Positions 15,414-40,591 of a DNA stretch of 45,051 bases are shown here, piece by piece. Position numbers and translations under genes: made by a program. How positions within the stretch are numbered: the stretch's first letter is position 1; every line of letters starts with the position of its first letter. The stretch is from the sequence record OZ035747.1. One strand, 5' to 3'. The notes below the pieces were generated by a model. The model was not told the origin of the DNA and ran no database searches. It was given only the letters and a program-made list of their open reading frames with translations. This DNA comes from Vectrevirus T145P2.

Positions 15414-15429
15414 GTCTCACATGTGAGAC
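15414..15429. repeat. 16-bp palindrome GTCTCACATGTGAGAC, copy 1
   Basis: Perfect palindrome 3 nt upstream of promoter 15432. Confidence 0.8.
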
Positions 15430-15431
15430 TT

Positions 15432-15454
15432 ATTTACCGGACACTATAGGATAG
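15432..15454 (+). promoter_or_regulatory. phage RNAP promoter (CCGG subclass)
   Basis: ATTTACCGGACACTATAGGATAG. Confidence 0.7.
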
Positions 15455-15605
15455 CCGTCGGAGACGGGAAAGAAAGGGAAGATAAAGGATATAAAGGAAG
15501 TAATAGGTATTAAAGGTTATATAGGTTATCTAGGAATACCTAGGAATACCTATTACCTTCTGCCCTTCCTCTTATTACCACTTAGAGGAAAGGCAGACCT
15601 AGGTT

Positions 15606-15621
15606 GTCTCACATGTGAGAC
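15606..15621. repeat. 16-bp palindrome GTCTCACATGTGAGAC, copy 2
   Basis: Perfect palindrome, preceded by GGCAGACCTAGGTT also found at 8545. Confidence 0.8.
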
Positions 15622-15626
15622 TTCGT

Positions 15627-15649
15627 ATTTACCGGACAGTATAGATAAG
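15627..15649 (+). promoter_or_regulatory. phage RNAP promoter, variant core
   Basis: ATTTACCGGACAGTATAGATAAG. Confidence 0.55.
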
Positions 15650-15675
15650 ACTAACTCACTTTGGAGATTTTAACC

Positions 15676-15804
15676 ATGCGTAACTTTGAGAAGATGACCC
15701 GTAAAGCTAACCGTTTTGACATGGAAGAAGGGCAGACGAAAGGCAAGAAGCTGAATAAACCTGTCCGTGACCGTGCATCTAAACGCGCTGCGTGGGAGTT
15801 CTAA
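15676..15804 (+). CDS. small basic protein, T7 gp1.1-like (42 aa)
   Basis: GGAGA then ATG 15676; MRNFEKMTRKANR...KLNKPVRDRASKR matches my recollection of T7 gp1.1. Confidence 0.65.
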   Translation: MRNFEKMTRKANRFDMEEGQTKGKKLNKPVRDRASKRAAWEF

Positions 15805-15807
15805 GTT

Positions 15808-17796
15808 ATGGCTATTATTCAGAATGTACCGTGTCCCGCCTGTCAAAAGAATGGACATGATATTACTGGCAACCATCTTATGATATTTGAGGATGGCGCT
15901 GGTTACTGTAACCGTGGTCACTTCCATGATAACGGCAAGCCTTATTACCATAAGCCAGAGGGTGGCATCGAGATAACCGAATTACCTATTACTGGCAATA
16001 TCAAATATACACCTTCTCAGTTTAAAGAGATGGAGAAGGAAGGGAAGATTAGCGACCCTAAGCTACGCGCCATCGCACTTGGTGGTATGCGTATGAAAGA
16101 CCGTTGGGAGGTTATGAATGAGCAAGAAAGGGCAGACCAAGAAGCAGAGTGGAAACTTGATGTTGAATGGTTCCTCACGCTTAAGCGTAAGAATCTTGTT
16201 TCCCGACACATTCGCGGCGACATTTGCGCATTGTATGATGTACGTGTCGGACACGATGAAGATGGTAGAGTCTCACGGCATTACTATCCACGCTTCGAGA
16301 AAGGTGAGCTAGTAGGCGCCAAGTGTCGCACATTACCTAAAGACTTTAAGTTTGGTCATTTAGGTAAACTCTTTGGTATGCAAGATCTTTTCGGTATGAA
16401 TACTTTGTCTCACGTGTTAGACAAGGGAAGACGAAAGGATTGCTTGCTTATTGTGGGCGGCGAACTGGATGCACTAGCAGCACAGCAGATGCTCCTTGAT
16501 TCTGCCAAGGGTACTAAGTGGGAAGGCCAGCCTTACCATGTATGGTCTGTCAATAAAGGTGAGTCTTGCCTTGAAGAGATAGTGCAGAACCGTGAGCATA
16601 TCGCCCAATTCAAGAAGATTATATGGGGTTTTGATGGAGATGAGGTGGGGCAGAAGCAGAATCAGCAAGCGGCTCGCCTGTTTCCTGGCAAATCCTATAT
16701 CCTTGAATACCCTTCTGGTTGCAAAGATGCTAACAAGGCATTGATGGCTGGCAAGGCTAAAGAGTTTGTTGATGCTTGGTTTAATGCCAAGTCATCTGAT
16801 GAAGTCTTTGGTAGCCAGATTAAATCTATCGCATCTCAAAGGGATAAGCTCAAGGCTGCACGTCCAGAGCAAGGGTTATCATGGCCTTGGCCTAAGCTGA
16901 ACAAGGTAACGCTAGGTATTCGTAAGAACCAGCTTATCATTGTAGGTGCAGGCTCTGGTGTAGGTAAGACTGAGTTCCTCCGCGAAGTGGTTAAACATCT
17001 TATTGAAGAACACGGTGAATCTGTAGGCATCATTTCTACAGAAGACCCGATGGTCAAGGTGTCCCGTGCTTTTATCGGCAAGTGGATTGATAAGCGTATT
17101 GAGTTACCGCCAACCAACGACCCGAAAGAAGACGGATACCGTGAGGTGTTCGACTACACCGAGGAAGAAGCTAACGCTGCCATTGATTATGTGGCTGATA
17201 CAGGAAAGCTATTTGTGGCTGACCTAGAAGGCGACTATTCTATGGAGAAGGTAGAGCAAACTTGCCTAGAGTTTGAGGCTATGGGCATTTCTAATATCAT
17301 CATTGATAACTTAACGGGGATTAAATTAGATGAGCGTGCTTTTGGTGGGAAGGTTGGTGCACTTGATGAATGCGTCAAACGAATTGGTACTATCAAAGAC
17401 CGACATGCGGTTACGATTTTCCTTGTCTCTCACCTTACACGTCCTCCGGCAAACCGTACCCAACACGAAGAAGGTGGCGAAGTTATCCTTTCTGACTTCC
17501 GAGGCTCAGGCGCTATCGGATTCTGGGCATCTTACGCCTTGGGGATTGAGCGTAATACAAGAGCTGAAACGCTTGATGAAAGGACTACCACGTACATCTC
17601 TTGTGTCAAAGACCGCGACCAAGGTATCTACACAGGAACCAAAGTCATGCTCAAGGGTGACATTCAGACCGGGCGTTTGAGAGAACCACAAGCTAGAACA
17701 AGGTCGTTTGATACAGGCGAAGCAAGGCAACAAGAAGTACCGGATTTACCGGACACTATAGAAGAGACAACCTTTGACGATGAACAGGAGTTTTAA
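15808..17796 (+). CDS. DNA primase/helicase (T7 gp4-like)
   Basis: 662 aa; N-terminal Cys4 zinc motif CPACQKNGHD...YCNRGH; Walker A GAGSGVGKTEF; acidic C-terminus ending DDEQEF. Confidence 0.95.
   Translation: MAIIQNVPCPACQKNGHDITGNHLMIFEDGAGYCNRGHFHDNGKPYYHKPEGGIEITELPITGNIKYTPSQFKEMEKEGKISDPKLRAIALGGMRMKDRWEVMNEQERADQEAEWKLDVEWFLTLKRKNLVSRHIRGDICALYDVRVGHDEDGRVSRHYYPRFEKGELVGAKCRTLPKDFKFGHLGKLFGMQDLFGMNTLSHVLDKGRRKDCLLIVGGELDALAAQQMLLDSAKGTKWEGQPYHVWSVNKGESCLEEIVQNREHIAQFKKIIWGFDGDEVGQKQNQQAARLFPGKSYILEYPSGCKDANKALMAGKAKEFVDAWFNAKSSDEVFGSQIKSIASQRDKLKAARPEQGLSWPWPKLNKVTLGIRKNQLIIVGAGSGVGKTEFLREVVKHLIEEHGESVGIISTEDPMVKVSRAFIGKWIDKRIELPPTNDPKEDGYREVFDYTEEEANAAIDYVADTGKLFVADLEGDYSMEKVEQTCLEFEAMGISNIIIDNLTGIKLDERAFGGKVGALDECVKRIGTIKDRHAVTIFLVSHLTRPPANRTQHEEGGEVILSDFRGSGAIGFWASYALGIERNTRAETLDERTTTYISCVKDRDQGIYTGTKVMLKGDIQTGRLREPQARTRSFDTGEARQQEVPDLPDTIEETTFDDEQEF
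17744..17766 (+). promoter_or_regulatory. phage RNAP promoter inside 3-prime end of the primase-helicase gene
   Basis: ATTTACCGGACACTATAGAAGAG. Confidence 0.7.
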
Positions 17797-17957
17797 TGGA
17801 AATTATTAAACCAGTATTGAATATCGGTATTGAGATCCTATTCATGCTTGTGATCGCAGATTATGCTGCACGATATGGATTCAAGAAAGCTGTGAAACTT
17901 ATCGTTGCATCTGGTTTTATTATGTCAATGTTCTTTATTGTAACACGCCTTATCTAG
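17796..17957 (+). CDS. small membrane protein (53 aa, two hydrophobic segments)
   Basis: AGGAG then ATG 17796 overlapping helicase stop (TAATG). Confidence 0.5.
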   Translation: MEIIKPVLNIGIEILFMLVIADYAARYGFKKAVKLIVASGFIMSMFFIVTRLI

Positions 17958-17974
17958 TGTATTTATCAGGGCTT

Positions 17975-17990
17975 GTCTCACATGTGAGAC
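17975..17990. repeat. 16-bp palindrome GTCTCACATGTGAGAC, copy 3
   Basis: Embedded in GCTTGTCTCACATGTGAGACAGGC, which can form a ~12-bp stem. Confidence 0.8.
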
Positions 17991-18029
17991 AGGCTCTTAT
18001 TAAGTACATTAAATAACTGGAGGTTGATT

Positions 18030-18752
18030 ATGTATAACTTAGTGTTGAATGTAGGTGACTTTGTACGCAACATCAAGAAAGATTCAAGTCGCTATCTTTG
18101 CCGTGGTGTTGTAACCTTTGTAGGTGAGAACCTGTATCATGTAGAATATCACAGTGGTGTTAAGCAGTATTACCACAAGAGGACAGCACATAAATATCTT
18201 GAAAAGATTGTAGAGGTAAACAATCAATGTAAGTGCATACATGATGAGGTTTGCGATAAGTGCAAACGTCAGGCAATTAAAGTCTTTACCTTTGCTCAAC
18301 GCTATGGTTCTATGTATGGTGCTGGTCACAAGACCGTTGCAGAAGCAGCTTGGAAGACATTGCAGTTTGAGAGTTCAAATGGACGACGCACCACACTCAA
18401 GAAAGAGCGTCGCAATGTAATCACTGGTAAGACTCAAAGTGAGATGATTAAGCAATGTGGCACTGCATTAGGTGTTACACAGTTTAATACTCGTGCATTG
18501 GGTAAATCCACAGGACAAGCTATGGTAAAGATTGGCGAAGCCATGATGCATCCAAATGTACCTGTGCGAATCATGGATGTTGACCATGCAATCACAGAAC
18601 ATGGTACACCACGGCGTGTAGCTAATAATCATTTTGCCGACACTATAGAAGGTATTATCCGTAAGCAAGAGTTGAAAGGTCTTCACATCTTGAATGGTGA
18701 AGAGTTACTGTACCTCCCTATCGTTACTGAAGAAACCTACGTGAATATCTAA
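18030..18752 (+). CDS. hypothetical protein with Cys cluster (240 aa)
   Basis: GGAGG then ATG 18030; CKCIHDEVCDKCKRQ zinc-binding-like cluster; no family recognised. Confidence 0.7.
   Translation: MYNLVLNVGDFVRNIKKDSSRYLCRGVVTFVGENLYHVEYHSGVKQYYHKRTAHKYLEKIVEVNNQCKCIHDEVCDKCKRQAIKVFTFAQRYGSMYGAGHKTVAEAAWKTLQFESSNGRRTTLKKERRNVITGKTQSEMIKQCGTALGVTQFNTRALGKSTGQAMVKIGEAMMHPNVPVRIMDVDHAITEHGTPRRVANNHFADTIEGIIRKQELKGLHILNGEELLYLPIVTEETYVNI
18631..18653 (+). promoter_or_regulatory. variant phage RNAP promoter-like site inside the 18030..18752 gene
   Basis: ATTTTGCCGACACTATAGAAGGT. Confidence 0.45.
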
Positions 18753-18762
18753 GGAGTCAATC

Positions 18763-18981
18763 ATGACTAAGGTATTAATTTATATGCGTGGACCTCATAA
18801 ATGCTATGCAGTTGTAGCACCAGATGGTGTTAAGCCCTATGGTACTTCAAAAGGATTGGCATTAATAGGTGCTAGTCGTAGTGCAAGTTTCCAAATGGAA
18901 CTTTCTGGTCATTGGACTGAATGGCAATTCCGTGAGGATTTTAAAGTCATTGGCAGCTTCATGGTGAAATATGCAGAATAA
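18763..18981 (+). CDS. hypothetical protein (72 aa)
   Basis: ORF track; GGAG upstream. Confidence 0.55.
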   Translation: MTKVLIYMRGPHKCYAVVAPDGVKPYGTSKGLALIGASRSASFQMELSGHWTEWQFREDFKVIGSFMVKYAE

Positions 18982-19180
18982 ACATAGTCTTAGAATGTTC
19001 GATGGTCATGAAGACCTGCAAGCCAAGATTACTAACCAAGCCTTCCTGTTCGCACAGTTAACTATGGCTGAGGCCAAGAAGAATAGTCTCACTCGTGAAC
19101 AGGTTATCAAGGAGGCCACTTGGGAACCACACCAAGGTAAATATATGGGCCACAAATTAACTGTAACACGCAGTCGATAA
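18971..19180 (+). CDS. hypothetical protein (69 aa)
   Basis: ORF track; overlaps previous stop. Confidence 0.55.
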   Translation: MQNKHSLRMFDGHEDLQAKITNQAFLFAQLTMAEAKKNSLTREQVIKEATWEPHQGKYMGHKLTVTRSR

Positions 19181-19238
19181 GTCAAGGGTTGTCCAACGTG
19201 TTGGACAGCCTTTCATCATATTGATTGGGAGGTATTAA

Positions 19239-19391
19239 ATGACTAAGTTTACTATGCAAGACCTCATTAAATTACGTGATGAAATAGAATCACCGGAAGT
19301 TAATACAGAGTTTCACTACATTGATCCACGAGATAAACGAGAGATTCCTGATTATCAGATTGAGACGGAGTTAATGTATGAAGATTATTGA
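19239..19391 (+). CDS. small acidic hypothetical protein (50 aa)
   Basis: GGGAGG then ATG 19239; overlaps DNA polymerase start by 14 nt. Confidence 0.4.
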   Translation: MTKFTMQDLIKLRDEIESPEVNTEFHYIDPRDKREIPDYQIETELMYEDY

Positions 19392-21924
19392 TTGGAAGAA
19401 GGAAGCAGAAGGCCGTATCCTAGTGATGGATGCAGAGGCTAAAGGCCTGCTGAATGCTATCCGCTATGGTCATCGTGAAGATGTGCATATCATTTGCTGC
19501 ATGGACTTGCTTACTACCGAGGAGTTTCTCTTCTTTGACCCGTATGAGATGCGTGACCCTGAAGCAAGAGAACACCTGAAGGAATGGGAAGGTCATCAAG
19601 ATGGTGACTTGGTTGATGGTGTTAACTTCCTGAAGCACTGTGAAGCTATTGTGTCGCAGAACTTCCTAGGGTACGACGGCCTTCTATTTGAGAAAGCATT
19701 CCCTGATATCTGGAAAGGCTTTAACTATACCGAGAGACGCGGCAAGGGCAGACTCCGCGCTGACCTGTGTCCGGTACGCGTCATGGATACGCTGGTCATG
19801 AGTCGCCTGTTAAACCCCGATAGACGCCTCCCTCCGCAAGCATACGCCAAAGGCATGGGTAACGTCGCCCCTCACTCAATTGAGGCGCACGGCATCCGTA
19901 TAGGCCGTTATAAGCCGGAGAACGAGGATTGGTCTAAGCTAACTGACCACATGGTTCACCGTGTACGGGAGGACGTGGCGATAGGCCGTGACTTGTTCCT
20001 CTGGCTCTTTAACGGGGAATGGATGGAGCACAAACGCCGTGGCGTGAATAAACGCACTGGCCTAGGTATTGAGACAGCCTTCCACATGGAGTCCATTGTG
20101 GCGCTGGAGATGAGCCGTCAGGCCGAGCGTGGATTCCGTCTGGATATAGATAAAGCATTAGCACGATGCGAGGAATTGGACGCTAAGATTGATGAGACAG
20201 TCGCAGCGTTCCGTCCGCACATGCCTATGCGTATCAAGTCTAAACCTTTTAAACCGGAAGAAAAGAATGAAGTATGCCAACGCGCAAATGAGTATGGAGC
20301 TAGCAACAATATACCTACTGTCCTTGACCCCTCTCACTTTCTTCACGCAGAGAGACGAGGAGATCGCAAGACAGTATGGAGTGTCACTACTAAGTCTGGT
20401 GATTGGTCGGCTAGCGTCAAGAAAGACTTTCCTCACCTTAGAGGAAACCGTAATGACACGCCAAGCATCAAGTGGATTGGCGCTTACTCGCCTGTTACTT
20501 TCGAAGAGATTCCCTTGGGTAACAGGGATACAGTTAAGCAAGTGCTCTATGATTATGGATGGAAAGGTGTTGAATTTAACGATACCGAGCAAGCGCATCT
20601 CGATGAGCATGGCGTATTACCCAAGCCTTGGAGTGGGAAGATAAATGAAAAGTCCCTTACTTTATGGCAAGAGAGAGCCGCACGTGAAGGTAAAACAGTC
20701 CCTGATTGGTGCTTGGGTATCGCTGCATGGTACATACTCGTATCCCGTCGTGGTCAGATCCTCAACCGTGGTGACGTTGAAGCCTTCGACCAGAAGGGGG
20801 TGTGGCCTTCGCAAGCTGGTATACGAAAGTGTCGCGGCCTTGTACCTGTAGCATTTAACAAGGAGTTAGGAATCAATGCGCAGCAATACTACGAAAGGTA
20901 CGGATGCTGGCCTACGTCAGACAAGGATGACGGAGAATGGCGTGTGCCAGCTATTGCTATTAGTATTGGAACTTCTACGTTCCGTATGCGTCATCGTAAC
21001 GTGGTTAATATTCCTGCCCGTGGTTTGTATCCTTTACGTGATTTATTCATAGCAGGTAAAGGTAAGCTAATCCTTGGTTGTGATGGTGCTGGTCTTGAAC
21101 TACGTGTACTGTCTCACTTCATGAATGATCCTGAATATCAAGATATTGTACTGCATGGTGACATTCACACCCATAATCAAATGAAGGCTGGTCTTCCTAA
21201 GCGTGACATGGCGAAGACATTTATATATGCCTTCCTATATGGGTCTGGTATAGCTAACCTTGCAGCAGTATGTGGTGTTACTGAGGAAGAAATGGAGGAA
21301 GTTGTGGCAAGATTTGAGGTTGAACTACCATCTCTTGCACGTCTTCGTGAGAATGTTATCGCACAAGGTAACAAGTTTGGCTACCTACAAGCACCTGATG
21401 GTCATTGGGGTCGCATCCGTATGTCTGGTGGTGAACTTAAAGAGCACACTATGCTTAACGTACTACTCCAGATGACTGGTTCTCTGTGTATGAAATACGC
21501 ATTGGTCAGAGCGTTTGCAGTGATGCGCAAGGAAGGTGTGGCCTTAGATAGCATGGGAAACCCTTGCGGTATAGCTAACGTGCACGATGAAATCCAGATG
21601 GAAGTCCCTGAAGATGAGGTCTTGTATCTCAACTACGACTTGCCTTTCACCTTAGAAGGGTTCGAAACAGAGAAGGCTGCTGTGAAAGCAGTGTTCGATG
21701 CAGAGGAGAAACGTGTTCATGTGGATTCTGAAGGACGTATGTGGTCTGCTGCAAATCTCGTTAGTGTTGATGCTGATGCTGGTGTACTTCATTGCCAGCG
21801 TCGTTATCACCGTGCAGGGCATATCATTGCCGATGCAATGACTTGGGCTGGTCATTATTTGAAGATGCGTTGTCCGATGGCAGGTGAGTATAAGATTGGT
21901 GCAAGCTGGAAGGAAACACACTGA
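19378..21924 (+). CDS. DNA polymerase, family A (T7 gp5-like)
   Basis: 848 aa; GCDGAGLELRVLSHFM...GDIHTHNQ...KTFIYAFLYGSG parallels the T7 DNAP polymerase motifs; N-terminal exonuclease region. Confidence 0.96.
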   Translation: MKIIDWKKEAEGRILVMDAEAKGLLNAIRYGHREDVHIICCMDLLTTEEFLFFDPYEMRDPEAREHLKEWEGHQDGDLVDGVNFLKHCEAIVSQNFLGYDGLLFEKAFPDIWKGFNYTERRGKGRLRADLCPVRVMDTLVMSRLLNPDRRLPPQAYAKGMGNVAPHSIEAHGIRIGRYKPENEDWSKLTDHMVHRVREDVAIGRDLFLWLFNGEWMEHKRRGVNKRTGLGIETAFHMESIVALEMSRQAERGFRLDIDKALARCEELDAKIDETVAAFRPHMPMRIKSKPFKPEEKNEVCQRANEYGASNNIPTVLDPSHFLHAERRGDRKTVWSVTTKSGDWSASVKKDFPHLRGNRNDTPSIKWIGAYSPVTFEEIPLGNRDTVKQVLYDYGWKGVEFNDTEQAHLDEHGVLPKPWSGKINEKSLTLWQERAAREGKTVPDWCLGIAAWYILVSRRGQILNRGDVEAFDQKGVWPSQAGIRKCRGLVPVAFNKELGINAQQYYERYGCWPTSDKDDGEWRVPAIAISIGTSTFRMRHRNVVNIPARGLYPLRDLFIAGKGKLILGCDGAGLELRVLSHFMNDPEYQDIVLHGDIHTHNQMKAGLPKRDMAKTFIYAFLYGSGIANLAAVCGVTEEEMEEVVARFEVELPSLARLRENVIAQGNKFGYLQAPDGHWGRIRMSGGELKEHTMLNVLLQMTGSLCMKYALVRAFAVMRKEGVALDSMGNPCGIANVHDEIQMEVPEDEVLYLNYDLPFTLEGFETEKAAVKAVFDAEEKRVHVDSEGRMWSAANLVSVDADAGVLHCQRRYHRAGHIIADAMTWAGHYLKMRCPMAGEYKIGASWKETH

Positions 21925-22040
21925 TGGACAGGTTTGATGTTGTTTGCCTATTCTCTATCTTCTTTCTTATATTCCTTATGCTTGCTTGCTATGGAAGTAT
22001 GCGATTAGGTATACCTGATGAAGAGGAGGGTTACGATTGA
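21924..22040 (+). CDS. tiny hydrophobic ORF (38 aa)
   Basis: ATG overlapping DNAP stop; VVCLFSIFFLIFLMLACYG. Confidence 0.35.
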   Translation: MDRFDVVCLFSIFFLIFLMLACYGSMRLGIPDEEEGYD

Positions 22041-22138
22041 TGCAAACTGCTTTTATCATTCTTGGGATCATATTATTTATGGTAGTATTCTGGGCTTTCT
22101 CTGGCATTGACCCAGATTGTGATGGTAACTACGACTGA
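22040..22138 (+). CDS. tiny hydrophobic ORF (32 aa)
   Basis: ATG overlapping previous stop; AFIILGIILFMVVFWAF. Confidence 0.35.
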   Translation: MQTAFIILGIILFMVVFWAFSGIDPDCDGNYD

Positions 22139-22206
22139 GTTATACTCAAGGTCACTTACGAGTGGCCTTTATGAATAACTTATTCCTACTTATTTTGTCT
22201 AACATG

Positions 22207-22228
22207 ATTTACTGGACACTATAGAAGG
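22207..22228 (+). promoter_or_regulatory. phage RNAP promoter
   Basis: ATTTACTGGACACTATAGAAGG followed by AT-rich TAGGT-repeat leader. Confidence 0.85.
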
Positions 22229-22293
22229 AAATCCTAGGTAATCTAGGTTTATAAGGTAGTATAGGTAATTAAGTAAATATAGGAGATATAAAT

Positions 22294-22671
22294 ATGTCTA
22301 TGGTAACTACTCTGGTATTCGTGGCTCAATACTTTCGTGGTCTTGCTAATAAGTTCAAGTCCAAGGCTATCAAAGCTATTGAGGCTCGCATCGAAGCAGT
22401 ACAGGCAGAGCAAGTTAAAGTTGAAGAGCATCGTAGTTCTCAAATGATTGACTGTCATAACCGCTACTATGCATCTCGTGATGAACTAAATGCACGTCAA
22501 GTCAAAGAGGTAGAAGATATGCTGGCACGTCACCAGCAAGAGCGTGACAGCCTGAAAGCTGAATTTGAAGAGAACAAGGCATCAATTGCTCTTGTAAATC
22601 AAGCTGCATCTGACAGCCTGAAGAAAGAGATTGTTATGCTGGAAATAGAACTGGACAACTTGACTAAATAA
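22294..22671 (+). CDS. hypothetical coiled-coil protein (125 aa)
   Basis: TAGGAGA then ATG 22294; hydrophobic N-terminus then heptad-rich sequence. Confidence 0.6.
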   Translation: MSMVTTLVFVAQYFRGLANKFKSKAIKAIEARIEAVQAEQVKVEEHRSSQMIDCHNRYYASRDELNARQVKEVEDMLARHQQERDSLKAEFEENKASIALVNQAASDSLKKEIVMLEIELDNLTK

Positions 22672-22676
22672 GGGTT

Positions 22677-22976
22677 ATGATGGAAGAAGTGATTCAAGCT
22701 AAACATGTAGGTATCATCTTTCGTGATTTAGAGCAGCGTAAAGTTGCAGGTCACACTCGTCTGGCTAAAGAAGACGATACAGCAATCACTACTGTGGAAC
22801 AAGCAGATGCATATCGTGGTCCAGAGTTTACTCAAGGTGAAACTTGTCATCAATTGAGCCTTTCACTTTGTGACACTATGGCTAGTGTAAATGTACAAGA
22901 GGTTGAAGATGGTGAATGTGTTAGTTATGTCTACCCTCTCGATACTATTGCACGTATTAAGGTAGTTCATAAGTAA
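22677..22976 (+). CDS. hypothetical acidic protein (99 aa)
   Basis: ORF track; ATGATG start. Confidence 0.55.
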   Translation: MMEEVIQAKHVGIIFRDLEQRKVAGHTRLAKEDDTAITTVEQADAYRGPEFTQGETCHQLSLSLCDTMASVNVQEVEDGECVSYVYPLDTIARIKVVHK

Positions 22977-24089: not shown

Positions 24090-24105
24090 GTCTCACGTGT
24101 GAGAC
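24090..24105. repeat. 16-bp near-palindrome GTCTCACGTGTGAGAC, copy 4
   Basis: One central change relative to the other copies; 15 nt upstream of promoter 24121. Confidence 0.7.
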
Positions 24106-24120
24106 AAATCGGTGTCCGGT

Positions 24121-24143
24121 ATTTACTGGACACTATAGAAGAG
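24121..24143 (+). promoter_or_regulatory. phage RNAP promoter
   Basis: ATTTACTGGACACTATAGAAGAG. Confidence 0.85.
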
Positions 24144-32382: not shown

Positions 32383-32388
32383 TTCAGT

Positions 32389-32411
32389 ATTTACTGGACA
32401 CTATAGAAGGG
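32389..32411 (+). promoter_or_regulatory. phage RNAP promoter upstream of the capsid gene
   Basis: ATTTACTGGACACTATAGAAGGG. Confidence 0.85.
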
Positions 32412-33670: not shown

Positions 33671-33678
33671 TACCTATG

Positions 33679-33711
33679 CCCTATCTACCTTGCGTAGGTA
33701 GGGTTCTTTTT
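33679..33711 (+). terminator. intrinsic terminator after the capsid gene (T-phi-like position)
   Basis: CCCTATCTAC / GTAGGTAGGG 10-bp stem followed by TTCTTTTT. Confidence 0.75.
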
Positions 33712-33724
33712 GTTAGGAGGATTC

Positions 33725-34462
33725 ATGCCTGTAATTAGACAAACCAGTAAAGTAGGACATATGATGGAAGATGTGGCCTTCCAGATTATTGATAGTAAGC
33801 TGGAAGCGGTAAACTTGTGTATGCGAGCTATTGGTCGTGAGGGTGTGGATTCTCTCGACTCAGGTGACTTGGACGCAGAAGATGCAAGCAAGATGATCGA
33901 CATCGTATCCCAGCGATTCCAGTACAACAAAGGAGGTGGCTGGTGGTTCAATCGTGAACCGAACTGGCAACTTGCACCAGACACTAACGGTGAAGTTAAT
34001 TTACCTAACAACTGCCTAGCAGTATTGCAGTGTTATGCTTTAGGTGAAAAGAAAGTACCTATGACTATGCGAGCAGGTAAGCTCTACTCTACATGGAGTC
34101 ATACCTTTGATATGCGTAAGCATGTGAATGCTAATGGTATGATTCGTCTTACCTTACTTACCTTACTTCCATATGAGCATCTACCTACTAGTGTAATGCA
34201 GGCTATTGCCTATCAAGCTGCTGTAGAGTTTATTGTGTCTAAGGATGCAGATCAGACTAAGCTAGCCACTGCGCAGCAGATAGCCACTCAGCTTCTTATG
34301 GATGTACAATCTGAGCAAATGTCACAGAAGCGATTAAACATGCTGGTACATAACCCCACTCAGCGTCAGTTTGGTATCATGGCTGGTGGCTCTCAGAATG
34401 TACCTGCTTACTCTCATTCACCTTATGAGAGTTGGGCGCTCCGTCCGTGGGAGGATCGTTAA
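33725..34462 (+). CDS. tail tubular protein A (gp11-like)
   Basis: AGGAGG then ATG 33725; 245 aa. Confidence 0.9.
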   Translation: MPVIRQTSKVGHMMEDVAFQIIDSKLEAVNLCMRAIGREGVDSLDSGDLDAEDASKMIDIVSQRFQYNKGGGWWFNREPNWQLAPDTNGEVNLPNNCLAVLQCYALGEKKVPMTMRAGKLYSTWSHTFDMRKHVNANGMIRLTLLTLLPYEHLPTSVMQAIAYQAAVEFIVSKDADQTKLATAQQIATQLLMDVQSEQMSQKRLNMLVHNPTQRQFGIMAGGSQNVPAYSHSPYESWALRPWEDR

Positions 34463-36864
34463 TGGAAGTACAAGGTTCATTAGGTAGACAAATCCAAGGG
34501 ATTAGCCAGCAGCCGCCAGCGGTACGCTTGGATGGTCAGTGCACAGCTATGGTTAATATGATACCTGATGTAGTGAATGGTACTCAATCACGCATGGGTA
34601 CAACTCATATTGCAAAGATACTTGATGCGGGGACTGATGACATGGCCACTCATCATTATCGCAGAGGTGATGGTGATGAAGAGTATTTCTTCACGTTGAA
34701 GAAAGGACAAGTTCCTGAGATATTTGATAAGTATGGGCGCAAATGTAATGTGACTTCACAAGATGCACCTATGACCTACCTCTCTGAGGTTGTTAATCCA
34801 AGGGAAGATGTGCAATTCATGACGATAGCTGATGTTACTTTCATGCTTAATCGTAGGAAAGTAGTTAAAGCTAGTAACAGGAAGTCACCTAAAGTTGGAA
34901 ACAAAGCCATTGTGTTTTGTGCGTATGGTCAATATGGTACATCTTATTCCATTGTAATTAATGGGACCAACGCTGCTAGTTTTAAAACACCGGATGGTGG
35001 AAGTGCAGACCATGTTGAACAAATTCGAACTGAACGTATCACTTCTGAATTGTACGCTAAGTTGCAGCAATGGAGCGGTGTGAGTGACTATGAAATACAA
35101 AGAGACGGTACTAGTATATTTATCGAGAGACGGGATGGTGCTAGCTTTACAATAACAACCACCGATGGTGCAAAAGGTAAGGATTTAGTGGCTATCAAGA
35201 ATAAAGTTAGCTCTACTGACCTACTCCCTTCTCGTGCGCCTGCTGGTTATAAAGTGCAAGTGTGGCCTACTGGCAGCAAACCTGAGTCTCGTTACTGGCT
35301 GCAAGCTGAGCCTAAAGAGGGAAACCTTGTGTCTTGGAAAGAAACAATAGCTGCTGATGTATTACTTGGGTTTGATAAAGGCACAATGCCTTACATTATT
35401 GAACGTACAGGTATCATCGACGGCATAGCTCAATTCAAGATAAGACAAGGTGATTGGGAAGATCGTAAAGTAGGTGATGACTTGACTAACCCTATGCCTT
35501 CTTTTATTGATGAGGAAGTACCCCAGACAATAGGTGGAATGTTCATGGTGCAGAACCGCCTATGCTTTACAGCAGGTGAAGCGGTTATTGCTTCTCGTAC
35601 ATCATACTTCTTCGATTTCTTTCGTTATACGGTTATCTCTGCATTGGCAACTGACCCATTTGATATTTTCTCAGATGCTAGTGAAGTCTACCAGCTAAAA
35701 CATGCAGTGACCTTAGATGGCGCTACCGTGTTGTTCTCTGATAAGTCACAATTCATACTGCCAGGCGATAAGCCTTTAGAGAAGTCAAATGCACTGCTTA
35801 AGCCTGTTACAACATTTGAAGTGAACAATAAGGTGAAGCCAGTAGTAACTGGTGAATCGGTAATGTTTGCCACTAATGATGGTTCTTACTCTGGTGTACG
35901 AGAGTTCTATACAGACTCTTATAGTGACACTAAGAAGGCACAAGCAATCACAAGTCATGTGAATAAGCTTATCGAAGGTAACATTATCAACATGGCAGCA
36001 AGTACCAATGTCAACCGATTGCTTGTCACTACCGATAAATATCGTAACATAATTTACTGCTATGATTGGTTATGGCAAGGTACAGACCGTGTACAATCAG
36101 CATGGCATGTATGGGAGTGGCCTATGGGTACAAAGGTGCGAGGTATGTTTTATTCTGGTGAATTACTTTATCTACTCCTTGAGCGAGGCGATGGCGTCTA
36201 TCTGGAGAAGATGGACATGGGTGATGCACTAACCTATGGTTTGAATGACCGCATCAGAATGGATAGGCAAGCAGAGTTGATCTTCAAGCATTTTAAAGCA
36301 GAAGATGAATGGATATCTGAACCACTTCCTTGGACTCCTACTAACCCAGAACTTTTGGATTGCATCTTAATAGAAGGGTGGGATTCATATATTGGAGGTT
36401 CTTTCCTGTTCAAATATAACCCTAGTGATAACACCTTGTCTACAACCTTTGACATGCATGATGATAACCACGTAAAAGCGAAGGTTATTGTTGGTCAGAT
36501 TTACCCTCAAGAGTTTGAACCAACACCTGTAGTTATCAGAGATAGGCAAGACCGTGTATCCTATATTGATGTACCTGTTGTGGGGTTGGTTCACCTTAAT
36601 CTTGATATGTATCCTGATTTCTCCGTGGAAGTTAAGAATGTGAAGAGTGGTAAAGTACGCAGGGTGCTAGCGTCAAACCGTATAGGTGGTGCTCTCAACA
36701 ACACAGTAGGTTATGTTGAACCAAGGGAGGGTGTCTTCAGATTCCCACTGAGGGCTAAGAGCACGGATGCTGTTTATCGTATTATTGTAGAATCACCTCA
36801 TACATTCCAGCTTCGCGATATTGAGTGGGAAGGGAGCTACAATCCAACCAAAAGGAGGGTCTAA
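34462..36864 (+). CDS. tail tubular protein B (gp12-like)
   Basis: GGGAGGA then ATG 34462; 800 aa; N-terminal GISQQPP as in T7 gp12. Confidence 0.93.
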   Translation: MEVQGSLGRQIQGISQQPPAVRLDGQCTAMVNMIPDVVNGTQSRMGTTHIAKILDAGTDDMATHHYRRGDGDEEYFFTLKKGQVPEIFDKYGRKCNVTSQDAPMTYLSEVVNPREDVQFMTIADVTFMLNRRKVVKASNRKSPKVGNKAIVFCAYGQYGTSYSIVINGTNAASFKTPDGGSADHVEQIRTERITSELYAKLQQWSGVSDYEIQRDGTSIFIERRDGASFTITTTDGAKGKDLVAIKNKVSSTDLLPSRAPAGYKVQVWPTGSKPESRYWLQAEPKEGNLVSWKETIAADVLLGFDKGTMPYIIERTGIIDGIAQFKIRQGDWEDRKVGDDLTNPMPSFIDEEVPQTIGGMFMVQNRLCFTAGEAVIASRTSYFFDFFRYTVISALATDPFDIFSDASEVYQLKHAVTLDGATVLFSDKSQFILPGDKPLEKSNALLKPVTTFEVNNKVKPVVTGESVMFATNDGSYSGVREFYTDSYSDTKKAQAITSHVNKLIEGNIINMAASTNVNRLLVTTDKYRNIIYCYDWLWQGTDRVQSAWHVWEWPMGTKVRGMFYSGELLYLLLERGDGVYLEKMDMGDALTYGLNDRIRMDRQAELIFKHFKAEDEWISEPLPWTPTNPELLDCILIEGWDSYIGGSFLFKYNPSDNTLSTTFDMHDDNHVKAKVIVGQIYPQEFEPTPVVIRDRQDRVSYIDVPVVGLVHLNLDMYPDFSVEVKNVKSGKVRRVLASNRIGGALNNTVGYVEPREGVFRFPLRAKSTDAVYRIIVESPHTFQLRDIEWEGSYNPTKRRV

Positions 36865-37610
36865 TGGCTATAGGTTCAGCCGTTATGGCTGGTATGTCTT
36901 CTATTGGTAGTATGTTTGCAGGTAGCGGTGCAGCAGCCGCTGCTGGTGGTACTGCCGCAGCAGCAGGAGGGACAGCCGCCGCAGGTGGCGGAGGTTTGCT
37001 TGGCTCCCTTGGTAGTTTCTTAGGAGGTTCTTCTGCTGGCTTCTCTAATGCAGGACTGCTTAGTGCAGGTATGCAAGGTCTTGGTCTTCTAGGCAATCTT
37101 TTTGGTGGAAGTGATGAAGCCAAAGCTATGAAGAAAGCTCAGGAGGAGCAATGGCGGCAGCAGTTAATTGCTACACAAGAAGCATATAAGACAGTGGCAG
37201 ATGCAGAACGCTCTGCTGCTAAACAGTATCATGCGGATGCAATAAGCAATCAGGCTTCACTACTGCAGCAGAGAGCACAGGTTGCATTGCTTGCTGGTGC
37301 TACTGGTACTGGTGGTAGCTCTGTGTCTTCTATGCTGAATGACTTAGCAGCAGAAGGCGGAAGGAACCAGAGTACAATTATCGATAACTATGAGAATCAG
37401 AAGATTAACTTCACAAACCAGCTTAAGTCCATCCAACGTGGTGGTCAGATGCAGATGCGTGAGTTTAAGAAACCTTCTGCCGTGAGCACCTTGGTGCAAG
37501 GTATACCGAGTCTGGCATCTGCCTATGTAACAGGTAGTAAGTCCGGCATGGCTTTAGGTAAAGCTTTAACTGATTCTCGTACCTATTCATCTGGAACAAG
37601 AGGTATTTAA
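36864..37610 (+). CDS. internal virion protein A (Gly/Ala-rich N-terminus)
   Basis: AAAGGAGGG then ATG 36864; 248 aa. Confidence 0.75.
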   Translation: MAIGSAVMAGMSSIGSMFAGSGAAAAAGGTAAAAGGTAAAGGGGLLGSLGSFLGGSSAGFSNAGLLSAGMQGLGLLGNLFGGSDEAKAMKKAQEEQWRQQLIATQEAYKTVADAERSAAKQYHADAISNQASLLQQRAQVALLAGATGTGGSSVSSMLNDLAAEGGRNQSTIIDNYENQKINFTNQLKSIQRGGQMQMREFKKPSAVSTLVQGIPSLASAYVTGSKSGMALGKALTDSRTYSSGTRGI

Positions 37611-40558
37611 TGGCAATTGAGCGACAAGCAGTACAAGGTCTGCCACAAGTGCAGGCCACTTCTCCTAATGTCATGACCTTTGCACCTCAGCGAGTTGGAG
37701 GTGTGGAGGCTGGCGTAGCTTCTACCTCCGGTAGTCGATTTATCGAAGACCTTATTCGAGCAGCCAGTAGTGTAGCTGATGTAACCACTGGTATCCTTAA
37801 TCAAAAGATTGAGGAAGATAAGGTTGTTCAAATGGAACGGGCATATAACGGATTAATGCCTTCTGAGGATGCAACTCGTGGTGGCGCTCGTGCTAACATG
37901 CTTGTCAAAGCTCAACTGCTAGCTAATGATGAAGCAGCACGAATGAAAGACATGGCTACTCGTTTCCAAGGAACGGATGACGAGTGGACACAGCTTATGG
38001 TTGACTCTCGTAATGAGATGCAGAATAAGCTGTTCCAGCAATACCCTGAGTTGCAAGGTGACAAAGATACTATGCGTATGGTCACTAATGTCTTCCAAGA
38101 ACAGCAGCCTCAGATTTGGGCTACACGAACCCAGCATAAACTTGACCGTGAACAAGCAGACCGTGAGGATACCTTTGACGGGCGAGTGGCTTCTACTTGG
38201 GATTCTAATATTGACCCTGAAGCCTCTGGATATGCTTTACAGGAACGGATCCGCGAAGGTCTTACTCAAGGATTACTACCTGAACAGATGCACAAGAAGT
38301 TAGTCCAGCGAGCAATTTCACTTGCACAAGGCGGTGATGTTAGCATGGCTGAAGCCCTGAAGTATGTGAAGGACGATAAGGGTGTTTCTGTTTATGCTAA
38401 GAATCCACAGCTTATCACAGCCATCACTAGTGGTAATGCAGTTTGGGCTAGGAATAATGTAGCTGATGTAACTCGTATGTCTTTCGAAGTTAAAGAATCA
38501 TACCTTGCAGGCGATTTAACTGATGAAGAATTGTTGGAACGAGCACAGCACATTAATAATCTGACAGGTAACTCTGTCTTCTCTAACCCAGAACTAGAGG
38601 CACTGATGCGCCAACGAGCTAAGCAGAATGCAGAGCTAGGTGCAATGCAGGATATGCGCCGTGAGCTTTACTCCGACCGCCTGACTGGCTTCCAAGGTAA
38701 GACTGATAAAGAGAAGAAGGCTTACATTGATGTTATCAAACAAGATAGCCAACTTTATGCAGACCAGCAAATCAAACAACGTGGCTTGGACCCTTACAGT
38801 CAAGAGGCTGAAGCTATTCGTGGTGCAGTGGAAGTGCAGCGCCTACAATTCATGAACTCCAAAGGCTTAGTGGATGATACCTTTGAGTCTCGTATCAAAG
38901 CCATGGAATCTATGCTATCGCCTGAGCACTTTGCCAAGGGCGAACCACAAGAGTTGATGACTATTCGCCAGTTGTGGGAACAGTTGCCAGAAGAGAGCCG
39001 AGGTGTCTTTGGTGACACGGTGAATGGCTACATGGATAACTACAACACTGCACTACAAATGGGGGAGACACCTTTGCAGGCTGCAAGGTTTGCGCGTAAA
39101 GCACAGCAGAAATTCTCTCGTACTGAGAAGGAAACCAAGAAGTTCAACTCAGCTATTGGAGATGCACTGGATGAGGTATCTGGTGCTGGCTGGTTTGATG
39201 GTAAAACCGAAGTGTCAGACTTAGGTAAAGCTATTGCGGAAGAAGAGTTACGAGCTAAGGCCAATATGTTGTGGTCTAGTGGTATGCGTAACATGGATTC
39301 CATCAAGAAGGCTTTAATTACTTGGGGCAATAAACGCTACACTCAATCAGAGGATGCAAAGACTTCCGGTGGCTATTTCATTAAAGGTGATTACACTTCT
39401 GCATCTGATATGCTTATGTCAGTTGGGAAAGGCGTAAACCCTACCGATGTACCTCTGGCGCTTGGTAGGTATGTAGAAACACAGATGCCAGAATTGAAGA
39501 AGGAGCTTCAAGAGGGGGAAACTAAAGATGATATATACATTGATTACAATGAACAGAAAGGTACTTTCGTGATTCGTGCTGGTGCAGCAGGTCGCCCTCT
39601 TTCTGGGGTAATCCCTGTAACCTCTTTAGATACCACTTCACTACTAGATTCTGCCTACCAGAAGAAAGTAGAGGAACGAGATAAAGGCGAGTATGTTCAC
39701 CCGTATCGTACAGGTATTGGTGCACAAGAGCCTATGCCAGCTAAACCAACTGCCAAAGATATTGGTAAATTTGGACTAGCTAACTTCCTCATGTCTTCTG
39801 CTTTTGCTTCTGGTGAGAATCTGCCTTCTAACTTCGAGATTAACTATCGAGGTAATATGCAACAATTCTATGACAAGCTAGCTATGGATGAGAATAAAGA
39901 TAAAGTTGGCTTTAATAAGGCAACTGGAACCTTTACTCCATATAAAGACGCTCACGGTGAGTCTATCGGTTACGGTCATTTCTTAACGGAAGAAGAGAAG
40001 CGAAACGGGTATATTAAGATTGGCGATGAACTAGTTCCCTATCGAGGGTCTATGTCTCAGCTTACAGAGAGCAAGGCTCGCGCTCTTATGGAGCAAGATG
40101 CTAAGAAGCATGTGCCTCCTACTCGTGACTGGAAGATTCCGTTTGACCAGATGCATCCTGCACAGCAACGTGGCTTAATGGATTTAACCTACAATTTAGG
40201 TAAAGGTGGAATCCAGAACTCACCGCGTGCTCTTGCTGCATTCAAAGCTGGTAAGCTTACGGAGGGTTTTATCGAAATGCTGGGCACTGCATCAAGTGAA
40301 GGTAAGCGTATTCCTGGCCTACTGAAGCGACGCGCTGAGGCATACAATATGGCATCTGCTGGTGGTGTGCCTAAGATTACCGAAGTGGAGACTCGTGAAG
40401 ATGGCTCCATGTGGGTTAGGTTTGGTGGACCTATGCCAGCAGGTTCTGTCTCGGCATGGACTCATAAACGTATTGGCGCGGATGGCTGGTATCAGGTTTA
40501 TGAGGCTGCACCTACAAAGTTAGCTAAAGGTTCTAAGGTAGGTAAAGTTAAGTTGTAG
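37610..40558 (+). CDS. internal virion protein B with C-terminal lysozyme-like (GH24-type) domain
   Basis: 982 aa; HGESIGYGHF ... LMDLTYNLGKGG near 39900-40380 resembles phage lysozyme motifs. Confidence 0.85.
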   Translation: MAIERQAVQGLPQVQATSPNVMTFAPQRVGGVEAGVASTSGSRFIEDLIRAASSVADVTTGILNQKIEEDKVVQMERAYNGLMPSEDATRGGARANMLVKAQLLANDEAARMKDMATRFQGTDDEWTQLMVDSRNEMQNKLFQQYPELQGDKDTMRMVTNVFQEQQPQIWATRTQHKLDREQADREDTFDGRVASTWDSNIDPEASGYALQERIREGLTQGLLPEQMHKKLVQRAISLAQGGDVSMAEALKYVKDDKGVSVYAKNPQLITAITSGNAVWARNNVADVTRMSFEVKESYLAGDLTDEELLERAQHINNLTGNSVFSNPELEALMRQRAKQNAELGAMQDMRRELYSDRLTGFQGKTDKEKKAYIDVIKQDSQLYADQQIKQRGLDPYSQEAEAIRGAVEVQRLQFMNSKGLVDDTFESRIKAMESMLSPEHFAKGEPQELMTIRQLWEQLPEESRGVFGDTVNGYMDNYNTALQMGETPLQAARFARKAQQKFSRTEKETKKFNSAIGDALDEVSGAGWFDGKTEVSDLGKAIAEEELRAKANMLWSSGMRNMDSIKKALITWGNKRYTQSEDAKTSGGYFIKGDYTSASDMLMSVGKGVNPTDVPLALGRYVETQMPELKKELQEGETKDDIYIDYNEQKGTFVIRAGAAGRPLSGVIPVTSLDTTSLLDSAYQKKVEERDKGEYVHPYRTGIGAQEPMPAKPTAKDIGKFGLANFLMSSAFASGENLPSNFEINYRGNMQQFYDKLAMDENKDKVGFNKATGTFTPYKDAHGESIGYGHFLTEEEKRNGYIKIGDELVPYRGSMSQLTESKARALMEQDAKKHVPPTRDWKIPFDQMHPAQQRGLMDLTYNLGKGGIQNSPRALAAFKAGKLTEGFIEMLGTASSEGKRIPGLLKRRAEAYNMASAGGVPKITEVETREDGSMWVRFGGPMPAGSVSAWTHKRIGADGWYQVYEAAPTKLAKGSKVGKVKL

Positions 40559-40575
40559 TACCTAACTCAAGGCTT

Positions 40576-40591
40576 GTCTCACATGTGAGAC
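40576..40591. repeat. 16-bp palindrome GTCTCACATGTGAGAC, copy 5
   Basis: Same extended context GCTTGTCTCACATGTGAGACAGG as copy 3. Confidence 0.8.

Follow-up and report, generated by a model that had tools for sequence, protein, structure and literature searches.

Palindrome copies in the phage genome

Sequence record OZ035747.1 (45,051 nucleotides, analysed over its full length and hereafter called the window) is the circularly permuted genome of a K1E/K1-5-like phage (Vectrevirus), with all genes on the + strand. Exact copies of the 16-bp palindrome GTCTCACATGTGAGAC occur at 15414, 15606, 17975 and 40576. With up to three mismatches allowed, seven matches were found against 0.17 expected, a number reached by none of 100 shuffled sequences, and the five-fold recurrence claimed in an earlier note is thus real. 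The copy with one central change at 24090 and the degenerate copy at 9324, which differs at a single position, were also upheld, and the ORF list places all six copies named in that note (9324, 15414, 15606, 17975, 24090 and 40576) between genes, as it had stated. Additional copies were found at 16407 (two mismatches, within a gene), 19191 (an allelic form, GTCCAACGTGTTGGAC) and 22197 (a half copy). Three copies (R1, R2 and E in Table 1) end closely upstream of a phage promoter 23-mer, again as noted earlier. No Rfam family matched the window at the gathering threshold. The likeness of the core TCTCACA to the start of the T7 genome (TCTCACAGTG) is real, and yet a coincidence, because the genomes of K1-5 and SP6 start differently (TCGCCC and TCTCTCGG, respectively).

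Table 1. Palindrome copies and associated hairpins in the window
Feature	Coordinates	Strand	Sequence	Context
L copy	9324–9339	+	GTCTCACATGTTAGAC	~560 bp from the inferred left genome end, upstream of early host-type promoters; C5/T12 mismatch
R1 copy	15414–15429	+		Follows the intrinsic terminator of the RNAP gene; 2 nt before promoter 15432–15454
R2 copy	15606–15621	+		5 nt before promoter 15627–15649
P copy	16407–16422	+	GTCTCACGTGTTAGAC	Within the primase/helicase gene (15808–17796); frame TCT CAC GTG TTA GAC
H site	17950–18018	+		Two-part RNase III-type hairpin, apex palindrome 17975–17990; upstream of gene 10
D site	19166–19234	+		Two-part RNase III-type hairpin, apex allelic form 19191–19206; upstream of gene 12
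T7-type RNase III hairpin lacking the palindrome	22130–22190	+	ACUCAAGGUCACUUACGAGUGGCCUUUAUGA	Cleavage predicted after 22172; 54.3 bits from a model trained on it
Half copy	22197–22206	+	GTCTAACATG	Immediately adjoins promoter 22207–22229
E copy	24090–24105	+	GTCTCACGTGTGAGAC	Begins one base past the gene 17 stop codon; 15 nt before promoter 24121–24143
Second hairpin at the E site	24111–24134	+	GGUGUCCGGU paired with ACUGGACACU	The second arm is part of promoter 24121–24143
V site	40551–40619	+		Two-part RNase III-type hairpin, apex palindrome 40576–40591

Three copies crown extended two-part hairpins

The copies at 17975, 19191 and 40576 share an organization in which an upper stem of 12–13 bp, closed by a CRYG tetraloop, sits on a small asymmetric internal loop followed by a lower stem of 8–11 bp. 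The 17975 and 40576 copies, for which the earlier note had described a common context able to form a stem, indeed share GGCTTGTCTCACATGTGAGACAGG and form 13-bp stems inside the longer hairpins, with folding z-scores of -6.35 and -3.24, respectively. The V site separates genes 35 and 36, which encode internal virion proteins, and its elements are arranged in the order GUAGUACCUA-ACUCAAGG-CUU(palindrome)AGG-UCUUUAUGAU-AGGCACUAU.

Pairing at these sites is supported by comparative alignments. The V alignment (18 sequences) is 99% paired with eight compensatory pairs, and 10 of the 24 pairs in the D alignment show compensatory change; the H alignment comprises 13 sequences. Tallied from the pair tables, G-U cells far outnumber A-C cells (42:0 at V, 42:0 at D and ~34:2 at H), showing that the pairing is specific to the sense strand. 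A covariance model scored H, D and V at 66.6, 59.1 and 65.2 bits, respectively, these three and the 22130–22190 hairpin all being among its training sequences, and the stand-alone copies at no more than 11 bits. Moreover, the structure outlasts the sequence: at the V position, Erwinia phage Era103 has a two-part hairpin with a different tip, UAGGCAUCU-UUCG-AGGUGCCUA.

The extended sites resemble the RNase III signals of T7

We folded T7 around its ten RNase III sites, the coordinates of which we take to be those of Dunn & Studier 1983. The resulting consensus consists of ACUCAAGG, a 9–10-bp stem-loop and CCUUUAUGAU, in addition to a lower stem. The flanks of this consensus are fully matched at 40576, where the V site carries ACUCAAGG and CUUUAUGAU, and at 22130–22190, and partially matched at 17975 (AUCAGGG and CUCUUAUUAA) and 19191 (GUCAAGGG and CCUUUCAUCAU). 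The 22130–22190 hairpin is almost identical to the T7 R1.1/R0.5 consensus, and weaker two-part hairpins precede early genes and the RNAP gene. In a joint alignment of six T7 sites with twelve sites of SP6-like phages, 97.2% of the cells are paired and 14 of the 16 pairs show compensatory change; the covariation score is 0.795, compared to at most 0.145 with slid partners, and none of 500 shuffles reached the observed values.

RNase III requires at least 11 bp between the tetraloop and the cleavage site, and an internal loop limits cleavage to one strand, leaving a protective 3' hairpin (PMC1540722). The upper stems at 17975, 19191 and 40576 are longer than this minimum, and these three hairpins are best read, from their likeness to T7, as processing signals for the host RNase III. 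Of the proposal that the palindrome marks an RNA processing site, the part concerning 17975 and 40576 therefore gains support from the T7-like architecture, flanks and covariation, and 19191 can be added; it does not extend to the stand-alone copies, which are not substrates on their own because their 6-bp stems fall below 11 bp. Proximity to promoters has a precedent in T7, where the promoters phi1.1B and phi4.7 follow closely on R1.1 and R4.7. Altogether, phages of the SP6/K1-5 type appear, judging by sequence, to share the design of their RNase III signals with the distantly related T7 group.

The earlier note had also listed a phage-RNAP terminator or pause hairpin among the candidate functions, here considered for the host RNA polymerase as well. 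A consensus scan weakly flags 15414 and 15606 (six pairs followed by TTATTTAC or TTCGTATTTA), and a position right before promoters would suit the insulation of transcription units. However, a proper uridine run is absent after every copy, the stand-alone copies form weak stems (-3 to -6 kcal/mol), and the RNAP gene has its real intrinsic terminator at 15347–15370. The 40576 copy sits in the middle of the late operon; the nearest preceding promoter that matches the consensus is 8 kb away, at 32389, essential late genes follow the copy, and no consensus-matching promoter was found between it and the window end. T7 hairpins with identical flanks are processing sites rather than terminators, and we regard termination or pausing as very improbable.

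Stand-alone copies

The remaining five of the eight copies (9324, 15414, 15606, 16407 and 24090) each form 6 bp and a tetraloop, lacking conserved flanking stems. The R1 hairpin alone has 6 bp and a folding energy of -5.7 kcal/mol. Each copy is complementary to all others, and a 16-bp duplex between R1 and R2 is present in both the minimum-energy and the centroid folds of 15385–15660. At the E site, the arrangement with a second hairpin recurs with different sequences in seven lineages.

The P copy arose within its gene without length change. Across six genera, 13 of its 16 nucleotides are invariant, with variation confined to the three allele positions; if position 12 were G, the frame would contain a TGA stop. 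The corresponding stretch of the gene specifies unrelated peptides in PM85 and Era103. A long lower stem around 16407 was considered and rejected, as it is not conserved in other genera. At the left end, the arms of the copy are non-complementary (C-A, C-T or A-G) in 5 of 10 genomes, which indicates that the RNA pairing constraint is not upheld there.

Conservation and allelic forms across Molineuxvirinae

Comparison with related phage genomes, which the earlier note had suggested as a check, showed that the element is kept at equal map positions across Molineuxvirinae, including SP6 and phages of Klebsiella, Pectobacterium, Lelliottia, Proteus and Erwinia. All 12 genomes compared keep the R1 position, and the L position is conserved in K1-5 (559), SP6 (493), PP1 (482), phD2B (596), PM85 (205) and Era103 (741). 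Twelve positions are held across genera: G1, T2, C3, A6, C7, G10, T11, G14, A15 and C16 are invariant, and R8 and Y9 stay purine and pyrimidine. The hairpin is conserved to the base in at least eight genera and also occurs outside the RNase III context. Among various relatives, in-gene sites are found in the RNAP, primase/helicase, ligase and kinase genes. The RNAP-gene copy of PP1, phD2B and Era103 probably owes much to the semi-conserved peptide V/T-S/A-N-V-L-D; the equivalent site in the window reads GCTAACGTGCTGGAT and has no palindrome.

The element exists as two interchangeable alleles that can coexist in one genome, and the copies of a genome tend toward one shared allele or one shared 17-nt form. 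The 17-nt version of Proteus phage PM85, GTCCAAC-ACT-GTTGGAC, has 7 bp and a 3-nt loop; this genome carries five 17-nt copies (with ACT or AGT in the loop) and one 16-nt copy.

An alternative takes the element to be mainly a selfish or structural palindrome at the boundaries of modules, a cassette for recombination or gene conversion that template switching spreads and homogenises, with no direct role in expression. Between close relatives the allele does change as one block of four substitutions while the flanks stay identical; this is how ACG-C91 departs from the window at V, and the D site of this pair shows the reverse exchange. The identical 1-nt loop insertion at five dispersed PM85 copies fits as well, as does the variable gene content next to the hairpins at H and D, where gene 9.5 and gene 12 are not always present. 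However, the position is kept from Erwinia to Escherichia phages, ordinary homologous exchange needs more than 16 bases, and no transposase-like gene is present. Selection on the RNA is indicated by covariation in the stems on either side and by the correspondence with functional T7 sites, and a pure cassette seems to us quite improbable.

A scan of viral contigs for GTCCAACNNGTTGGAC returned mostly single matches in unrelated contigs, probably due to chance, in addition to a few SP6-like contigs and a prophage module. In this module, found in lambdoid prophages of ~12% of complete E. coli genomes, the palindrome, a K1-5-type promoter and a T7-type promoter lie upstream of a 40-residue hydrophobic ORF, with the hairpin standing between promoters for the polymerases of two virulent phages. 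The module could be a new kind of infection sensor.

Possible operator or sequence-specific factor

The proposal of a DNA site for a dimeric protein may still apply to the stand-alone copies, although it is weakened by the 17-nt spacing in the Proteus phage and by the distance of 2 to 18 nt between copy and promoter. In its full form, a dimeric phage or host protein would bind the 16-mer as a double-stranded operator to regulate adjacent promoters or replication, and the RNase III hairpins would reuse the sequence. The dyad symmetry is perfect, with two 7-bp half-sites (GTCYMAC) flanking a central RY, and the invariant positions are kept across genera even in stand-alone copies. Moreover, four site classes lie 2–18 nt upstream of phage promoters, in-gene copies are under nucleotide-level selection, and the left-end copy, upstream of every promoter on the linear map, has mixed half-site variants that do not keep complementarity. 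Nevertheless, neither the distance to the promoter nor the half-site spacing is fixed (five PM85 copies have 3 bp between half-sites and one has 2 bp), both alleles can occur together in a genome, the allele at a given site can differ from one close relative to the next, and only 3.5 of the 13 phage promoters in the window are accompanied by a copy. The extensions at H, D and V covary, with G-U pairs on the sense strand only, and Pfam and PHROGs searches revealed no DNA-binding domain in ten uncharacterised early and middle proteins, a weak negative. We therefore consider an operator unlikely.

A CRP-like or lac-like operator was rejected by inspection, the half-site order being wrong. SP6 primase is reported by Tseng, Frick & Richardson (2000) to recognise 5'-GCA-3', a trinucleotide missing from the core, and a primase recognition site was rejected. 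A partner protein changing together with the allele was ruled out as a criterion, as both alleles coexist in single genomes.

The twelve positions fixed across genera point to sequence-specific recognition beyond RNase III processing, because structure alone does not demand them, and the prevalence of a single allele or a single 17-nt form per genome likewise calls for an explanation added to the RNase III model. In one reading, which we hold to be a minority possibility, the core is the recognition element of a putative factor common to SP6-like phages, and core and phage promoters were captured by lambdoid prophages as a trap. The factor, whether an endoribonuclease or a protein that binds the hairpin or DNA, would work independently of RNase III at sites near promoters and within genes, coordinating either how early and middle transcripts turn over or how promoters are used. 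In such a trap, RNA polymerases from infecting T7-like and K1-5/SP6-like phages would turn on a small membrane peptide.

Proposed mechanism and significance

We propose, with reasonable though not strong confidence, that the palindrome is a hairpin cassette acting mainly in sense-strand RNA, with the extended sites serving as RNase III signals and the stand-alone copies perhaps engaging in pairing or factor binding. By analogy with T7, we infer that the host RNase III makes a single cut at the 3' side of the internal loop (between UUAU and GAU), predicted after 18000 at H, 19216 at D and 40601 at V. The upstream message would keep a protective 3' hairpin, whereas the downstream message would gain a 5' end ~20–40 nt before its start codon. 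The stand-alone copies would most likely either pair with another copy in read-through RNA or be recognised, as RNA or DNA, by a sequence-specific factor.

Public records of K1-5, K1E and SP6 annotate no RNA features at these sites, and a full-text literature search on the palindrome (also in its SP6 form), on RNase III in phages like SP6 and on the transcriptomes of these genera retrieved nothing relevant, transcript-end and cleavage data included, with Scholl et al. 2004 and Dobbins et al. 2004 outside its reach. The present analysis provides a map of likely mRNA processing sites, unannotated in the public records inspected, for phages of the SP6/K1-5 type, which serve in therapy against K1 E. 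coli and as the source of SP6 RNA polymerase. An RNase III processing signal is a textbook kind of element, from which the sites here differ by their palindromic tip; the occurrence of a base-conserved hairpin where no RNase III signal is formed offers a lead, open to testing, to a sequence-specific factor.

Comparison with known systems

The closest counterparts are the RNase III sites of T7 (R0.3, R0.5, R1, R1.1, R1.3, R4.7, R18.5 and others). They are likewise two-part hairpins on the sense strand with flanks ACUCAAGG...CCUUUAUGA, an upper stem of 10–13 bp and a small asymmetric internal loop, and they lie between genes shortly before a ribosome-binding site. About ten occur per genome, mostly in the left half and often with phage promoters nearby, and their tips within one genome resemble one another. 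They differ in that the tip here is a 16-nt palindrome conserved throughout the subfamily in two interchangeable alleles, and that the 16-mer also occurs free of RNase III-type stems, beside promoters and in genes. Moreover, the T7 sites were mapped as processing sites, whereas those of the window are known from sequence and predicted fold.

Operators of the lambda, 434 and lac types, which are palindromes bound by dimeric repressors, share the 16-bp dyad, the 7-bp half-sites and the position upstream of promoters. By contrast, the half-site spacing (16 or 17 nt overall) and the promoter distance vary here, and pairing of the flanking extensions is specific to the sense strand.

The REP elements of enterobacteria are short intergenic palindromes that are repeated and uniform within one genome, as seen here, and can protect the 3' ends of upstream mRNAs. 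Compared to REP, the phage elements have much smaller hairpins, few copies (8–10), no REP-associated transposase and map positions fixed across genera, and some of them lie in coding sequence. Similarly, the PeSL cassettes of T4-type phages are units of hairpin and promoter that recur at module boundaries with variable gene content; they are reported by Arbiol et al. 2010 to use early promoters of the host polymerase and are proposed to drive modular shuffling. In the window, however, it is the phage's own polymerase that the promoters serve, and the hairpin lies ahead of the promoter.

Distribution of the palindrome and its conservation among relatives

A 10-kb stretch of the window shares 94-99% identity with K1E, K1-5 and further genomes of Vectrevirus (Autographiviridae, Molineuxvirinae). 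The window is circularly permuted relative to K1-5, whose base 1 corresponds to about window position 8766, and the plus strand carries all of its long ORFs. A scan of the window revealed seven matches to the palindrome GTCTCACATGTGAGAC, compared to 0.17 expected by chance; the repeat is therefore real. All six copies listed in an earlier note were recovered, and all six are intergenic according to the ORF list. The proximity to promoters described there was also borne out: among 13 phage promoters in the window that fit the K1-5/SP6-type 23-mer, three begin 2, 5 and 15 nt downstream of a palindrome. The list, although accurate as far as it went, lacked a copy inside the primase/helicase gene (P), a copy in a context like those of 17975 and 40576 (D), found by a GTC-N10-GAC scan requiring paired arms, and a half copy directly joined to a promoter.

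Palindrome copies and associated features of the window (predicted cuts by analogy with T7)
Feature	Position	Location	Form or structure	Predicted cut after
L	9324	close to left genome end	one change; stand-alone
R1	15414	downstream of RNAP gene	exact; stand-alone
R2	15606	downstream of RNAP gene, in some genomes	exact; stand-alone
P	16407	within primase/helicase gene	two changes; stand-alone
H	17975	downstream of primase/helicase gene	exact; extended	18000
D	19191	upstream of DNA polymerase region	GTCCAACGTGTTGGAC; extended	19216
Half copy	joined to promoter at 22207	6 nt past modelled 22130-22190 hairpin	GTCTAACATG
E	24090	upstream of promoter preceding gene 18	one change; stand-alone
V	40576	between two large internal virion protein genes	exact; extended	40601
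Hairpin without palindrome	22130-22190		near-canonical T7 type, ACUCAAGGUCACUUACGAGUGGCCUUUAUGA	22172
Two-part hairpin	10977-11035	upstream of early genes	unique tip; folding z-score -3.9
Two-part hairpin	11690-11749	upstream of early genes	unique tip; folding z-score -3.4
Two-part hairpin	12638-12700	upstream of early genes	unique tip; folding z-score -2.2

The earlier note had proposed a comparison with related phages. Whole genomes of K1-5, ACG-C91, a Raoultella phage, SP6, two kinds of Klebsiella phage, Pectobacterium PP1, Lelliottia phD2B, Proteus PM85 and Erwinia Era103 were compared, all of which keep the palindrome at the same map positions. The most frequent form is GTCCAACRYGTTGGAC; the SP6 form is mostly GTCTAAC..GTTGGAC, giving a U-G pair in the sense RNA, and the form of Vectrevirus and Era103 is GTCTCAC..GTGAGAC. 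In the compared genomes, positions 1-3, 6-7, 10-11 and 14-16 are invariant, with only purines at position 8 and only pyrimidines at position 9. Both alleles are found within single genomes and are exchanged site by site among close relatives: the window has the CAAC allele at D and the TCAC allele at V, and the two alleles trade places in ACG-C91, whose V flanks are identical to those of the window. In PM85, five sites carry a 17-nt form, GTCCAAC-ACT-GTTGGAC, and L carries the 16-nt form.

The palindrome also occurs inside further genes of relatives, namely ligase (contigs L005, 19399; L130, 20860), the gene before ligase (L002, 17752; L006, 20123; L127, 18133) and RNAP (L006, 5622; L127, 4901; L130, 5754). 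These further copies are patchy among relatives, and in-gene copies share one frame (Ser-Asn/His-x-Leu-Asp) wherever the frame was worked out. Those in the RNAP gene partly reflect a semi-conserved peptide.

Extended copies resemble RNase III processing signals

Folding revealed that H, D and V have 5-7 extra pairs beyond the palindrome, below which an internal loop leads into an 8-11-bp lower stem. For comparison we used ten coordinates that we take to be the T7 RNase III sites (presumably those of Dunn & Studier 1983); most of these positions fold into a canonical hairpin, which supports the coordinates. The T7 folds display the well-known design of a lower stem, ACUCAAGG, a 9-10-bp stem-loop, CCUUUAUGAU and the lower stem again. 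In the window, the palindrome at V is flanked by the exact T7-site flanks, and the flanks of H and D are close variants of them. A joint alignment of six T7 and twelve SP6-like phage sites has 97.2% of its cells paired and compensatory changes at 14 of 16 pairs, and its covariation score, 0.795, fell to 0.145 or less when partners were slid; the single-site alignments of V, H and D are consistent with it. The pair tables hold 42 G-U cells each at V and D with no A-C cells at either, and about 34 G-U versus 2 A-C cells at H. This large excess of G-U over A-C indicates that the structure is selected on the sense strand, i.e. in mRNA. At the V position of Era103 the two-part hairpin is kept with a different tip, so that this position requires the structure rather than the palindrome.

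E. coli RNase III requires the scissile bond to lie 11 bp or more from the loop, and an internal loop restricts the enzyme to a single cut that leaves a protective 3' hairpin (PMC1540722). The upper stems of H, D and V, at 12-13 bp, are compatible with this minimum. The extended copies show every sequence-level feature expected of T7 RNase III sites, and we conclude that H, D and V represent RNase III-type processing signals, at which we infer cleavage.

Comparison of gene content with K1-5, ACG-C91 and the Raoultella phage placed the H and D hairpins at mosaic junctions, because gene content changes immediately beside them. In the region 17796-17975, beside H, the small gene 9.5 is present in the window and missing from K1-5, and in the region 19207-19391, beside D, gene 12 is present in the window and missing from ACG-C91 and P3a.

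Further hairpins and promoter-linked structures

A motif search revealed the hairpin at 22130-22190. When the joint alignment was turned into a covariance model and run on the window, no further strong site emerged, the four high scorers being the model's own training sequences; weaker two-part hairpins also came up at 10977-11035 and 12638-12700. The three hairpins upstream of early genes are probably further RNase III-type sites, the last of which takes the place of T7 R1, directly ahead of the RNAP start codon.

Within 24106-24143, a segment that directly precedes the E-site promoter is complementary to promoter positions -16 to -7, including the specificity bases, and together they would form a 9-11-bp hairpin in read-through RNA. 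In seven lineages (homologues from SP6, PP1, phD2B, PM85, Era103 and contig L091), changes in the promoter sequence are mirrored in the complement. This arrangement resembles T7 R13 and R3.8, whose RNase III hairpins include the promoter. A long imperfect inverted repeat of AGGTA/TACCT-like units (about 15455-15600) separates the two promoters downstream of the RNAP gene and folds as a long hairpin in both the window and SP6; its position may correspond to that of the primary replication origin of T7.

Stand-alone copies

L, R1, R2, E and P form a 6-bp stem only (-5.7 kcal/mol; -3.1 for the SP6 form), and alignments of the relatives revealed no conserved flanking stems at these sites. None of these copies could serve by itself as a substrate of RNase III. 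The RNA-processing role raised in the earlier note thus fits H and V, and likewise D, with their T7-like flanks and covariation, but not the stand-alone copies taken singly. The terminator or pause hairpin also raised there is unlikely, given the lack of a U-run at the palindrome copies, the weak stems and the mid-operon position of V.

Sequence comparison nevertheless argues that the stand-alone copies are under selection. In P, 13 of 16 nt are invariant over six genera, where otherwise just 14% of third codon positions are invariant, and the three nt that vary coincide with the allele positions. The Vectrevirus P copy follows the TCAC allele despite an Asn-to-His cost, departing from it only where G would make a TGA stop codon. 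The peptides of PM85 and Era103 at P are unrelated, and therefore the protein does not demand the palindrome sequence. Among promoter-proximal copies from many contigs, the arms are complementary in 34 of 40 distinct cases; three others have a sense-strand wobble (T4-G13), two a C-A and one an A-G mismatch, which gives no clear strand bias. The arms of L are often mismatched among relatives. The 45 nt upstream of L are unusually conserved, being nearly identical between SP6 and the K1-5 group, which are more diverged elsewhere (pre-fold MAFFT alignments), a pattern suggestive of a DNA-level element close to the genome end. Within 9280-9345 and its homologues, these 45 nt read AGCCAACCTA..CTATCCTAGCTC..TATCTATTGCTTTTCCTTA.

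The invariant palindrome bases suggest a sequence-specific factor acting on either the RNA hairpin or the DNA of these copies. They leave room for the dimeric DNA-binding protein of the earlier note, but a classical dimeric operator is argued against by the 17-nt form of PM85 and the varying distance to promoters. Action through copy-copy RNA pairing remains a candidate, as any two copies are complementary. In both the minimum-energy and centroid folds of 15385-15660, R1 pairs with R2 over 16 bp, a predicted duplex of sufficient length for RNase III, but such pairing is inapplicable to the single L and E copies.

A prophage module carrying the palindrome

The palindrome also lies in a fixed module in 16 prophage-like contigs (L008, L012, L015, L022, L029, L045, L052, L072, L080 and others; for example L103, 5985-6260). 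The module consists of a T7-group promoter ATACAACTCACTAATGGAGA, 21 nt identical to annotated promoters of FE44 and relatives; the palindrome GTCCAACACGTTGGAC, extended by 7 bp that covary among variants; an exact K1-5-type promoter; and a strong ribosome-binding site followed by a 40-aa hydrophobic ORF MFHSTNHQAVIMAVSVCATDLFRFTLSLIHFYLTGSPLSF. It adjoins bor and the lysis genes in lambdoid prophages, occurs in 632 of the 5426 complete E. coli genomes, and has no annotated feature in any of the hits listed. In Shigella phage SfIV (contig L180, 376-676), the second promoter has SP6-type specificity bases. The module has the look of a gene placed under the control of polymerases from infecting virulent phages, and may act as a trap that phage RNA polymerases set off. 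A literature search found no paper describing it.

Comparison with known systems

The palindrome and hairpins are unannotated in five GenBank/RefSeq records of K1-5, K1E and SP6, and the palindrome sequence is unmentioned in the searchable literature; the RNase III-like hairpins may have been described before. In sequence-level features the extended copies are like the RNase III sites of T7, for which neither a subfamily-wide palindromic tip, nor its solo and in-gene copies, nor two tip alleles have been described. Altogether, a known kind of element accounts for three of the eight copies (H, D and V), and the others carry a well-conserved component outside that explanation.
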